This document shows, one piece after another, positions 54,001-60,000 of a stretch of 64,000 nucleotides of DNA (the first letter of the stretch is position 1; every line of letters starts with the position of its first letter). A program made the position numbers. The stretch lies in NCBI GenBank assembly GCA_963748135.1, contig CAVVHY010000004.1, forward strand, positions 1,495 through 65,494, given 5' to 3'. The stretch is from an uncultured Gammaproteobacteria bacterium (lineage in GTDB: Bacteria; Pseudomonadota; Gammaproteobacteria; JBGSLN01).

Positions 54001-57000
54001 TACTCATTGATGGCTTAATGAAATGGCAACATTTGAGTATAAATCTCACTTCATCGATGCCAATTGGTATCTATCAACGACAAGCCACAAATTCTATTCA
54101 TCGTGGTGATATTGTCGCTCTATGTCTACCAAAAGAAACTGCTTTACTTGGCTTGAAGCGTGGTTATCTACGCAAAGGCAGTTGCCCAAGCGGTGCTATA
54201 CCGGTACTAAAAGAAGTAATCGCCGTGCCTGGTGATAATGTGATGGTGACGAAGGGTGACATTATTGTGAACGGTAAACCTTATTGGGCACCGATACAAA
54301 TACGCGACCGCATGGGACGGACAATGGTTACTAAGGTTGTTTTGAATCAATCACAACAAGCTAGGGGCTATTGGCTTTATGGAATGAATAATCCCATCTA
54401 TTCGTGGGACTCGAGGTATTATGGCGAGGTACTCAGAGTCTATATCCTTGGTATATATCGAAGAATTATATATAATTAACTTATTGGAGAATAATGTATG
54501 TTAAACCAGAAACTGCCAAAATATGAGTACTATGCAATCGCGGGTGTACTTACACATAATTCTATAGAACAAATTTATGCATTAAGTAATCGCTTCTCGC
54601 TGGCTGATTGTTATTATGAAACAGCGTTATTATACGAACCACACATTACGGTTGCACGTGGTTTACATGAAATAGACAAGCCTCTTCTGAAGCAAGTTCT
54701 ATCTCAAGCAAATATCACATTTAATATCACAGGTGTTGATATTCTCGAGCCTCTTGACAAAGATTATGACATAGTTGCGTTGCCCATTCATTCACATGAA
54801 TTGATAGCATTAAACAAAACCATTCTAGTTAATACGCCACATACCCTGGAGTATGATTATCGGCCTCATGTAACACTCGCCTTTTTAAAGAAAGGTAAAG
54901 CAAAGTTCTATCAAAATATTCATTTAGATCAGGAAACAATCAAGCTCTCATTGTCACACTATGTCCTATATGACAAAGAAGGTAAAGCACAGATAATCTG
55001 ACTCACAAGCTGAATTAAACTCTATACTGGCAATAGCCGCCTGATGAACAAAAATATTGTTAAAATAGCTAGATTTGCTTAAATCAAAACAAACTACATA
55101 CTTTAGGCATATCCCAATGGGTATCTGTATAGCTAATGAATGTTACCTGAAGGGGGGGTTGCATTGATGGATCTCAGATAATCTTCATAAGATACAATTT
55201 TGCTATTATCAAGGCCTGGGATGTTTTCCCTGAGCAAGGCATAATAAAGCTGATATGGGAGATCTAAATCAAGTTTATGCCCTTTGTAAAGATACTTTGG
55301 AAAATCAGAGATGGGCACTTTTCCCTCAAATAAAACTGTAAATAGCAGTAGCCTGCCAGTTTTGATATCTTCAAGAAGTTGAGTAGGAAAATGAGGATCT
55401 TTTTCATTTATGTACTTCGCAAGCTGTTCAACATCATTCTGTGTTCGGATGAGTAAGATCGAGGGGATCCCATCAGGCGTTAGGAAGAACATGCTACCAT
55501 TAGTGTCTAATGGATAACACTCAAATGAATTAAGCTTATGAAACATGTCTTTCATGAATAGGCGAAAATTATCATCGCTTAGATGTAAATTAGTCTCAGC
55601 GAGCTTCTTTGTGTTACTTGCTCTGTTTTTCTTGATTTTATTGTGTGTCATAATGCCTCAACTTATATCCAACTGACACTAGTGTAATGATGTTTATTCA
55701 TTAACCTGATCCTTTGAGCTTGGACGGTACAATACTATTAGCAATGTCGTTAATGTATTAGTAGTAAATGACAATCCATAGCCAATTATCAATACCCAAT
55801 CAAGCTTAGTGATACCGTATATCAATGCGAGTAGGTTGATTAGATTAAAACCCAGAAATGTTAAAAGCGAAATGTCTTCCGAGTTTTTCTTTTGATATAG
55901 GCGGATGATCTGTGGGATGAAAAGACAGGCGTTAATAAACAAAGCTGCGCCAAATAATACCGATATGATTTCATCGATTAGGATCATAGTATACTCTTAC
56001 TGGGATTTAGGAGTTGTCTACGGTATTAGTCTACACCAAATTTCGGTATTCCACATAAAGCAAAGCATTCGCAAAACCAACACTCGTCTGATAAGTGGGT
56101 ATCTTGTTAACACTTTAGGCTTCTGACTTAACCCCCTCAATGTCAGCCTGCTCACCATGTTAAATCCAGATTCCCTGATTCACATCATGTGGTTTCGTGA
56201 ATGCTTGTAATTTTAAATTTAGTAGATGTTTGGAATTTTGCAAATAAATAGGAAAATTTGGATCTTTTTGATGCAGAGGCATGACTCAGCTATACTCATA
56301 GAGCCATTAGAATATTTTAATATGCTTTTTTACCATGTGTTAAAATATCCCACCATTTGAATTTAACAGCAAGATAGTGATCAAGCTCCTTAGTATTGGA
56401 TGATCTGGCCAAATTTAATTCTGGCAGGCAAAATATTGCATTTGGTGACGCTTCTAACAAATGTAGCACGCCAGATGAAAAACCAGCTCCAGCGTAACAA
56501 ACTACAGCATCCATTGGCATTCTCTCAATATCACTTAAGGAGTATATTAACTTCTCATCAACGGTACCATGAACTTCTTGGTACTTACACTCAATTGCAA
56601 GTGCCGAATCAGTTATGGAATTTATAATTAGTATATCTATACGCCTATTTTTTCCGATGACAGTTTTGCCAATTGATATTTCCTTGTAGATACGTATGGA
56701 TCGAGACAAATAATGATGTTTAATATAATCTGCAATCAATTTACAATATGTGTATCCATCCATAGTATTACCTCTTATATGAGACGATAAGACTTAAATT
56801 AAAATCATGTATGTTTAGTATAGGATAATATCAAGGTCGATGCATTGCACTAGACTGGTTTTGATAGGGAATCAAGTGGTTAAGCCATGACACAATACAG
56901 TCTTGACTTAAAATGACAAATTAAGCTAGGTCTTGAACTCTTAACTAAACATGTAGGCAAGAGTCAATTATTCAATCAAACGTAATAATCCTCGTGTTAG

Positions 57001-60000
57001 GAATAATTATTGATGTATCTGGAAGTAAGAGTCCAACCAAATCGAACTTCCTTATATCATGTATTTTTTTATCATAAACATTAAAAAACTTTCCCATTCC
57101 TGTTTTTAAGTTTTTTGATTTAAAATTATGAGCAAGTAGAACATCATATCTCAATGAGTTGTATAAGGACACGGATGCAATCACATCATCATTTTCGGAT
57201 TTTTTGACTACTACAATATGGCCAAGTATCCTATAGCCCTTTCCTATCTCATCAAAAAGTATTGCCTCTGACGAGGTTTCTACTTGCAAATCATCCTCGC
57301 CATCTCGAATGAATTTTCTGCACGCATCAAACGCTCCATTTAATATGATATTTTTTGTATTGAAATATGCTAAAAAATTAAATGCTATTTTTGCGATAAC
57401 TCTTCTAAGTACCTTGTCAACTTTCGCTTCTATTAAAACCTTACAATCTTCAGTTTTTGGCGGCTCTAGTTCTCCTTCTTTTACGAAATTAATATTTAAT
57501 TTTTTGAATGCCTTTTTTGCTTCATCATGTCCAAGAGAAAATGCTCTAAGTTTAAGTCTGTCAGAGCTTAAATTATTCTTAATATTATTAGGTTTTGTAT
57601 GATTGAGTTTGTCTATAGGGATATAGTGCCATTTATTATTTTTTGCTTTATAGCCAATTTGCGGAATTATTCTAACTCCGTTCTCATCTAAAATTTCAAC
57701 ATAAAGACCCTTGAATTCTCCTTCAGCAAGCGTCATGGTGACTCTTTTACGCTCTATGTTACTTGGTTTTTTACCATGCCTTGAACGCATAACATGCCCT
57801 TCATAGCTATCTCTTGCTAACCATCGTTCTAATTTACTGAATTCATTATTACATTTATCACATACCTTTTTAGTCTTTTCTTTTTTTGCATTTAGAATTA
57901 AATTTTTTGGATTAAATTTTCCAAAACTTTGTGGAATCACATGTTCACGTTTGCTAAATTCAGCAATTTTTTTTTGCTTCTTACAATAGATACATATTGG
58001 CATATACGCTTCTCCTGCTTATTCTAATTATAGACAAAAACAATAAGTTGTATTTAATATAAGCGTATATTCTGTTAGGAGATACTTAACTGTAAGGTAA
58101 TACCGCATCTCTTGCCAATAACACATTAAAATTTATCCCAGGTCTTATCCTAATAGTCGGTTGCACATTCATCTCCTTGGCAACCAGTTGCATCGCGGCT
58201 TGGCTCATCTGTTGGCCTATGGCGGCGAAGATGATTTGCTGGGTGGTGAGTTGGTCGGTGCGTTGTTGCGGTTGGCTGAGTTGCCCTAATGCGCCGAAGA
58301 CGCTAAACATCAGGGCTGAGCCGAATACGCGCGTGTAGTGATGATCGGTGATGTCTGATAGACCTGCCATGCCAGCGAGATCGACGCCGGTTTGTCCGTT
58401 TAGGTCATATGAATTGCCGTTTGGGAAGATTAAGCGTGACCATGCGATTAAGACGCGGGATTGGCCGTAGGTGATTTGTGAATCGTAGACGCCGACAAGT
58501 GTTGTCCCTTGGGGTATTAATAAATAGTTGCCGGTGACAGTATCAAAGACATCGCGTCTGACTTTGGCGATGATAGTACCTGGTAAGTCGGAGTTGATGC
58601 CGGTGAGTAATGTTGCAGGGATGATGGTGCCGGCTTTTAATTCATAGGGTGAGAGTGGTTTTTTGAGGGTTGAATGGATGTAATCGTCGTTGCTTTGGTT
58701 GGTTCTTTTTAAGAATGCTATCTTCTCGCTTTGAGCATTTGTGTTGGTGTTTGGGTTATTTGCTGTTGTATTGGCATTCTCTGAGTCATTAATATCGTTT
58801 TGTGAACTGATAGTTGAGTTTGGGGTGTTGGCTGCCACTTCATGATGATACACCGACAATTGTGCATTGCTGGCGGCCTTAAATTCGCTGCTGCTAAGCC
58901 CTGAGTTGGTGTCTGAATTATCTGCGTTGGTATCGCTGTATGATGTGGCTGTCTTTGCATTAGTTGTGTGATGTCCATGAGCCTTTGACTTGTCTCTCAT
59001 AACAAGACTGGGTTTATGCGGCTCTTTTTGGATTTTATCGACCATCTCTGTTGAGTCATCCTCATCAACTATGGCGGTGAAGGTTTTTCTAACCATTCTT
59101 GGTGTGGATTGTGCGTATTTATCGATAAAGATAAGAAAGAGCACGATAAAAGTAAAGGCGATGCCTGCGAGTAGTATCAATAAGCGTTTACTAAAGCCTG
59201 TGCCTTTAGGTAGCTTAGGTAAGTATGATTTGGTTTGCGGTTTTTGATGCTGATTCATGTTTTGCCCCTGCCTCTCATCCAAAATTCTTATTATCGATTT
59301 CCACTTTTTCTTGATGAAAACCTTTGCCTGAGATTAAAAAGGCGCGTTGAAAAAGCCCGTCGATAATGTAATACGGTTGTTTGTAACGATAATTGACGAG
59401 TGCGAGCTTTTTATTTTTTTGAATGTAGAGCACGGGTAAGTCCATACGCTCAGTGATGGGTGGCATTTGGATATAGGTTTTGTCGCCATCATCAAAAATG
59501 CGTGTCGGCAGCCATGCGGGTCTATCGCCCGCAAGTTTATAATTAAAATTGAGATGGTTTAAGGCAACATCGGTACTTTGTGATACGGTTTGTGCAGCAA
59601 TGCCAGTGGTTTCATCATCATGCGCTTGAGTAGTGGCTTCTTGCAACGTTTCTTCTGGATAATAAAAGGTAACCACATGGGTCTTAGCATCTCGTTTACT
59701 GACTAATCCAATGTTATAAGTACGTTTATCGGTCGTGATAATGATATCGGTGGCGATATTGTAGCGTTTAGGTTTAAGTGTCACTTCATACGAGCCATCG
59801 TTTGCCGTACCCACACGTGCTGTACTCACCAGCCAATGGCTTTGATCGCCGATTTGAATATCATTGATCACTTCGCCTTGTTCGAGTTGGATGACACAAA
59901 GGTGTAACGGTTCACAGGCGATAATGGGATGTGAATATCGATTATAGGCCAATGTTACAAAACCATCGGCATCGATGTCTTTTGATTTACCATTTTTTGA

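Follow-up and report, generated by a model that had tools for sequence, protein, structure and literature searches.

In Trb-type conjugation operons, a homolog of VirB11 is encoded by the first gene and trbI is the last, so no gene is expected after trbI. The operons closest to the one studied here we take to be the Trb-type (P-type, IncP/Ti-like) operons of the Tn4371-family and Legionella Trb elements. Genes of the kinds described below also have counterparts in those type II restriction-modification (R-M) systems in which an N6_N4 methyltransferase is followed by a small PD-(D/E)XK endonuclease, and in the McrA-type type IV enzymes, which are solitary HNH nucleases. Legionella pneumophila has two 6S RNAs, including 6S2 (PMC3048289). 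In this study, we analyzed the block of genes that follows trbI in a Trb-type element of an uncultured gammaproteobacterium (assembly GCA_963748135.1; 2.2 Mb in 49 contigs, 55% complete). The window, by which we mean the whole 64,000-nucleotide stretch of DNA that was analyzed, covers positions 1495 to 65494 of contig C4 (CAVVHY010000004.1; 68,241 bp).

An earlier, sequence-only reading of the window had described this block as nuclease-rich cargo inserted where virB11 is expected, and had likened two of its genes, one encoding an HNH-domain protein and one a PD-(D/E)XK-fold protein, to a two-gene defense or exclusion module. All of the open reading frames (ORFs) that it listed were located where it had placed them, and the block was indeed found to be cargo of a conjugative element, in a slot (54425-58105) that nearly equals the 54498-58003 assigned to it. 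The block is probably an ordinary, fast-changing cargo slot of a Trb element, in which two unrelated, stand-alone nuclease genes lie side by side without forming a pair, and from which no transfer gene is missing. The features of the window on which this account is built are listed below.

52200-53915, plus strand: type IV coupling protein (TraG/TraD-like), backbone; domains TrwB_AAD_bind, TraG-D_C, and T4SS-DNA_transf, SXT_TraD subfamily
53919-54479, plus strand: TraF conjugative signal peptidase, backbone; TIGR02771 (TraF_Ti), 102.8 bits (cut-off, 100.25)
54425-58105, no strand assigned: variable cargo slot flanked by the traG/traF and trb operons, which converge on it; defined by blastn and G+C content
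54498-55001, plus strand: 2H (LigT-like) phosphoesterase, cargo; PF13563, 35.3 bits (cut-off, 27)
55133-55651, minus strand: orf172, a near-orphan with one homolog (59% identity)
55694-55987, minus strand: SemiSWEET-like PQ-loop membrane protein; PF04193, 34.2 bits (cut-off, 22), and PF03083
56044-56231, minus strand: 6S-like RNA; RF00013, 45.7 bits (gathering score, 46.4), E = 4e-7 over a 4.5-kb search
56317-56763, minus strand: PDDEXK_11 nuclease (the PD protein), a homolog of type II restriction endonucleases; PF20472, E = 2.5e-36
56972-58003, minus strand: solitary HNH_5 nuclease (the HNH protein) with an uncharacterized C-terminal region of about 280 amino acids (aa); PF14279, 35.5 bits (cut-off, 27.5), residues 4-56 only
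58086-59282, minus strand: TrbI (VirB10), encoded by the last gene of the trb operon; PF03743, E = 1.2e-57, and IncP-type TrbI, NF010405
59275-64000, minus strand: trbG, trbF, orf173, trbL, trbJ, and the 3' part of trbE; NCBIfam hits

A variable cargo slot where two operons converge

The slot was defined by a blastn comparison of C4 with the remainder of the genome, where contig C12 carries a second copy of the element (C12:76280-96819). The two copies are 89 to 90% identical over window positions 50270-54424, a tract that holds a mobC-like gene, the coupling protein gene, and traF, and likewise from position 58106 onward, from trbI through trbC and then the 3' end of trbB. No such identity was found inside the slot, at 54425-58105. 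The G+C content of the slot is 31 to 37%, versus 41 to 46% for the backbone. Following trbI, the C4 slot carries on its minus strand the HNH gene, the PD gene, the 6S-like RNA, the SemiSWEET gene, and orf172, with the 2H phosphoesterase gene on the plus strand; in the C12 slot, trbI is followed by a gene for an unknown protein of 375 aa, a 6S-like RNA, a PAS histidine kinase gene, a response-regulator-like gene, and a SemiSWEET gene. Because the same backbone carries differing genes at this position, we conclude that 54425-58105 is a variable cargo slot. The C12 traF contains an in-frame stop codon, which indicates that this copy is eroding, and a Sel1-repeat gene is inserted between the C12 trbC and trbB.

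The slot would be the accessory-gene site at which mobC-traG-traF (plus strand) and trbB...trbI (minus strand) converge in a Trb-type (P-type) element, whose host appears to be a Legionella-like gammaproteobacterium. Such a site may turn over fast, and it would have gathered unrelated, low-GC passengers: a 2H phosphoesterase gene, orf172, a 6S-like RNA followed by a SemiSWEET gene, and two independent nuclease genes. The listed cargo of the sequence-only reading is real, but that reading overlooked the 2H phosphoesterase gene (54498-55001, plus strand) and the 6S-like RNA (56044-56231, minus strand). It had also called for profile and PADLOC searches of the block. These assigned families, and none of the five cargo proteins was assigned to a system in PADLOC-DB v2. 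The GTDB family and order of the host comprise five genomes, and the other four contain neither nuclease gene nor traF. PLSDB contained no match to either nuclease protein or to the DNA of the 6S-like RNA plus SemiSWEET gene, and INPHARED contained none to the HNH protein.

The trb operon is complete

The order given earlier for the minus-strand operon, virB4-B5-B6-orf173-B8-B9-B10, was recovered as trbE-J-L-x-F-G-I, and the window does end inside virB4, since only the 3' part of trbE lies within it. Past the window, the contig continues with the remainder of trbE (820 aa), then trbD, trbC, and a trbB fragment at the contig end. The names returned by NCBIfam were TrbE, TrbJ, TrbL, TrbF, TrbG, TrbI, TrbD, and TrbC, and TrbB_P for the end fragment. 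This fragment is a 5'-cut ORF at the very end of the contig, ending "...SGFSTIHANSAKAAVQRV...", and is the C terminus of TrbB. It comprises the last 78 residues, lies upstream of trbC about 2.5 kb past the window, matches TIGR02782 (E = 1.7e-12), and shares 90% identity with residues 247-324 of the complete TrbB encoded by the C12 copy (328 aa; TIGR02782, 287 bits). A search of the genome with the VirB11 model TIGR02788 gave sub-threshold matches only. Neither a relaxase gene, an integrase gene, nor a full trbB was seen on contig C4.

Both the gene set and the gene order are those of the P-type (Trb) class, with TrbB heading the operon and the 5' part of trbB presumably beyond the contig end. 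Like the IncP/Ti-like Trb operons, that of the window element has the order trbB-C-D-E-J-L-F-G-I with the VirB11 homolog first; traG and traF form a separate unit, and accessory genes lie between the modules. Unlike them, it has an extra gene, orf173, between trbL and trbF (giving trbB-C-D-E-J-L-orf173-F-G-I), and trbK and trbH were not recognized in it. Because TrbB heads the operon, no transfer gene is missing, and the type IV secretion system (T4SS) is a complete, canonical P-type Trb operon. The idea that the block sits where virB11 is expected is thereby withdrawn: the VirB11 homolog is at the other end of the operon, its C terminus just past the window. The sequence-only reading had itself suggested looking for virB11 elsewhere and had named its discovery directly outside the window as a refuting outcome; TrbB was found there. 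Its description of a convergently encoded coupling protein at 52200-53915 on the plus strand is supported by the domain matches.

We also noted that orf173 (61001-61522, minus strand) has no family match and that the equivalent position in the C12 copy has an ORF of 136 aa. The orf173 product could be a divergent exclusion protein or an accessory Trb protein.

The two nuclease genes are not a conserved pair

In the window, the HNH and PD genes are same-strand neighbors separated by 208 bp, and each has a good ribosome-binding site of its own. This arrangement favors the proposal that the two proteins make up one defense or exclusion system of the element. To assess co-occurrence, profiles of both families were run against all ORFs in a set of 85 HNH loci (of which only 29 are flanked by 1.5 kb or more on each side) and a set of 84 PD loci (80 species-representative loci and four others). 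None of the 85 HNH loci (0/85) contained a member of the PD family, and a member of the HNH family was present in a single PD locus (1/84). The usual partner of the PD family proved to be a DNA methyltransferase, and the HNH family has no recurrent partner. The closest homologs of the HNH protein, those of Legionella, are encoded by other conjugative elements or integrase islands and lack a PD gene in their vicinity, and the closest PD homolog (63% identity) is encoded next to a methyltransferase gene and no HNH gene.

The single exception is L028, a distantly related locus that also carries both families, about 430 bp apart. Its HNH and PD proteins are 30% and 53% identical, respectively, to those of the window, and its gene order is methylase, restriction enzyme, a helix-turn-helix gene, and then a convergent, intact HNH gene. 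Order and orientation thus differ from those of the window, and the L028 PD gene has its own methylase. The co-location fits both genes being residents of defense islands. With neither co-occurrence nor a fixed order across the loci, and no PADLOC system matched, we regard a joint two-gene system as highly improbable; the two genes form neither an obligate nor a conserved pair. What is retained of the earlier proposal is that a defense-type role is plausible for each protein separately; both are credible nucleases with their catalytic motifs intact.

A restriction enzyme homolog apart from its methylase

The PD-(D/E)XK fold proposed for the protein encoded at 56317-56763 was confirmed by its match to PF20472, an invariant triad, and the predicted structure. 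D43, E58, and K60 are invariant in 21 homologs, as is E28, and the AlphaFold model (predicted local distance difference test [pLDDT] score, 91) gave Foldseek matches to NucS/EndoMS, Hjc, MunI, and MspJI, all PD-(D/E)XK nucleases. There are at least 1175 homologs, with 50 to 63% identity and a length of about 150 aa each. In three of the first four contexts, an N6_N4 methyltransferase gene ends at or overlaps the start of the nuclease gene. Across the full set, a beta-class N6_N4 DNA methyltransferase gene is present in 73 of the 84 PD loci, and in at least 62 of the 84 such a gene immediately precedes the nuclease gene, on the same strand. When 62 upstream ORFs were scanned separately against Pfam, 55 were identified as N6_N4_Mtase and one as Dam (PF05869). 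Of the eleven loci that lack a methylase, four are truncated by contig ends.

Since a methyltransferase gene lies beside most loci of the family, the PD protein is taken to be a type II R-M endonuclease, and the likely role of PF20472 is that of the endonuclease of a widespread type II R-M family. No member of PF20472 has been characterized in the PDB or in the literature searched: a PDB sequence search with the PD protein yielded nothing useful, and the literature search yielded no paper on PF20472. PADLOC models gave only weak partial matches to the protein (DrmD; E = 0.006). The window PD protein shares family, fold, and triad with type II R-M systems of the N6_N4 type, but unlike them, this copy has no methyltransferase. 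No methylase remnant was found in the 208-bp spacer or, by tblastn, genome-wide; one D12/Dam-like and one MT-A70 methylase are encoded elsewhere in the assembly. Judged from its sequence, then, the window PD protein is a restriction enzyme homolog separated from its methylase. Such an orphan would be either protected in trans by a methylase encoded elsewhere in the genome or silent.

The absence of the cognate methyltransferase from the assembly could also be read as decay, with the block being junk and its nucleases non-functional leftovers (for example, of a system whose methylase was lost) in an eroding element. The stop codon in the C12 traF and an IS3-family element 5 kb away are in keeping with this. 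However, both nuclease ORFs are full length, retain all invariant catalytic residues, and have good ribosome-binding sites. The PD protein departs from the family at 2 of 43 highly conserved sites (R27K and P73I), and methylase-bearing members depart at up to 4, so it looks intact and is no more divergent than they are. Furthermore, about five other assessable members of the family also lack an adjacent methylase, which argues that solitary copies can persist. We therefore consider decay unlikely and retain the reading of a cargo slot with two stand-alone nucleases.

Other PD loci showed further variation. The closest homolog is encoded in L026 (a 14-kb contig of JGI 3300056850), and in both L026 and L027, which come from two independent samples, the adjoining methyltransferase is split into two ORFs. 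A DarT gene, a PQ-loop gene, and low-GC (36%) DNA are found in the vicinity, and these loci may represent a related mobile element with a decaying R-M system. In L110 (L110:4413-4964), from a Psychromonas metagenome-assembled genome, a Dam-family (PF05869) methyltransferase gene precedes the PD nuclease gene in place of the usual N6_N4 type, which suggests methylase swapping within one R-M family and modification of N6-adenine.

A candidate stand-alone HNH nuclease

The presence of an HNH-domain protein at 56972-58003 was verified by PF14279 and by the motif CxxC...EH...CxxCN, in which C4, C7, H21, C48, C51, and N52 are invariant or nearly so among 16 homologs. The protein thus has the zinc-binding CxxC pair and the catalytic His and Asn of an HNH motif. 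Conserved residues were also found in the C-terminal region (K205, F208, N209, R229, and N282). A word-indexed search identified 17 relatives, including proteins of L. pneumophila (72% and 68%) and L. feeleii (44% identity), and a full profile search identified 713 clusters at an E value of ≤1e-30 and 1926 at ≤1e-10. Nearly all of the clusters are 320 to 355 aa (about 335 aa) long and match over their whole length; three longer members (622 to 975 aa) contain no extra Pfam domains.

Inspection of the 85 HNH loci revealed no recurrent neighbor family beyond near-duplicate contigs, and the commonest Pfam family among the 149 neighbor proteins occurs twice. Many of these neighbors are defense genes, among them brxB/brxC (BREX), mad2/mad3 (MADS), HEC-05, PD-Lambda-2 A/B, and Dsr1, as well as UzuA (Uzume), PD-T4-3, a type II methylase and endonuclease, Mrr_cat, a HaeII endonuclease, and GmrSD_N. 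The L. feeleii homolog is in an integrase island. Such a context would be the signature of a stand-alone defense gene.

The Legionella loci also bring in a different explanation, in which the HNH protein serves the DNA processing or spread of the element itself, for example as a selfish nuclease of the homing type or by assisting conjugative transfer, instead of defense. The L. pneumophila gene is placed immediately after that for the MobA/MobL relaxase of VirB-type elements, and at least three different neighborhoods occur downstream of it; in the window, the HNH gene comes directly after trbI, and no terminator is predicted in between. Most members of the family, though, are encoded away from conjugation genes, T4SS proteins accounting for 1 of the 149 neighbors, and the C12 copy of the element lacks the HNH gene, which indicates that it is not needed for the backbone. 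A role in the service of the element is very unlikely on these grounds, and we return to the view that the HNH protein probably acts alone in defense or exclusion. The family of more than 700 clusters is a candidate single-gene defense nuclease.

The HNH protein may be a DNA-targeting defense or exclusion nuclease in which the zinc-bound N-terminal HNH motif would cut and the C-terminal region would choose the target. Its genes appear to have no fixed partner and to travel on mobile elements and in defense islands. Like the McrA-type enzymes, it is stand-alone and mobile, has no methylase partner, and is encoded near defense genes. Unlike them, it has the reverse domain order, with the HNH domain N-terminal, and a C-terminal region unlike any known domain that binds DNA or its modifications. 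A PDB sequence search with the protein returned nothing useful.

Several observations weigh against the account of a cargo slot with two independent, stand-alone nucleases. No methyltransferase of the partner family is present in the window or in the 55%-complete assembly, and an orphan restriction enzyme, if active, would be expected to be toxic, an argument for either an inactive PD protein or a partner encoded in the 45% of the genome that is unassembled. None of the PADLOC models matches the HNH family, and the HNH structural model (pLDDT score, 77.5) gave no Foldseek match in the PDB or BFVD at an E value of ≤0.001, its C-terminal part being without a structural relative. The putative defense role of the HNH protein is drawn from genomic context. 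Finally, the co-location in L028 leaves room for a loose association of the two families.

6S-like RNAs and the remaining cargo

The feature that is most unusual in the block is the 6S-like RNA directly upstream of the SemiSWEET gene, rather than the nucleases. It matches RF00013 over its full length (model positions 1-187) at a score just under the gathering score, lies 57 nt upstream of the SemiSWEET gene on the same strand, and has a minimum-energy fold that is a long rod (-49.6 kcal/mol; z score, -2.58). The SemiSWEET-like PQ-loop protein named in the sequence-only reading was corroborated by PF04193 and PF03083, and it has paralogs at C12:80678-80946 and at about C12:65.4 kb.

Six 6S/SsrS-like matches to RF00013 were found in the 55%-complete genome, the others being at C12:83896-84069, C12:65727-65850, C33:38274-38418, C43:22948-23067, and C34:41237-41389. 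The C34 copy (45.9 bits) lies between zapA and the 5-formyltetrahydrofolate cyclo-ligase gene (ygfA) and is the only one at the canonical ssrS position. The C33 copy is chromosomal, beside the gene for the CCA-adding enzyme. On C12, one copy is in the slot of the second element and the other is beside the third SemiSWEET gene, in island cargo; one C12 copy, borne by an integrative and conjugative element, scores 51.0 bits. Three copies are in Trb elements or adjacent island cargo, and two of these are directly upstream of SemiSWEET genes. Of 120 sampled genomes of the same class, most carry a single 6S copy; four or five copies occur in just two others. When the six copies were aligned with MAFFT and analyzed with RNAalifold, they were either too similar or too divergent for covariation to be assessed.

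The window RNA resembles 6S/SsrS RNA and the 6S2 of L. pneumophila in its full-length Rfam match and in being present in multiple copies per genome (PMC3048289). Unlike L. pneumophila, the genome studied here has six 6S-like copies, three of them in Trb elements or adjacent island cargo. The literature search yielded no paper describing conjugative elements that carry 6S RNAs. A tentative further suggestion is that the element may carry an RNA polymerase-binding 6S mimic that retunes host transcription and, separately, that the HNH_5 protein may be an undescribed single-gene defense nuclease; we hold this to be conceivable rather than probable.

The two remaining passengers lie nearest to traF. 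The 2H phosphoesterase gene directly follows traF in the window and is absent from the C12 copy, and its translation contains the motifs HITV and HVTL, both of the form HxTx. The Acb1 model PF23474 scored 18.6 bits, under the cut-off of 27, so a role against the cyclic oligonucleotide-based antiphage signaling system (CBASS) is only a possibility. For orf172, the earlier description of a 172-aa ORF of no recognizable family was upheld, as no match was found in Pfam, NCBIfam, PHROGs, or PADLOC. A search of 5.8 billion proteins yielded a single homolog (59% identity). At the DNA level, the gene's 3' end is matched (79%) by the start of contig C35 (C35:30-178).

Significance of the block

These results remove a false lead, in that the T4SS is a complete and canonical Trb system and the nucleases do not constitute a novel pair. 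An orphan PD nuclease gene on a conjugative element raises the question of how such a restriction enzyme is tolerated, and the copies of 6S-like RNA on mobile elements merit targeted study.

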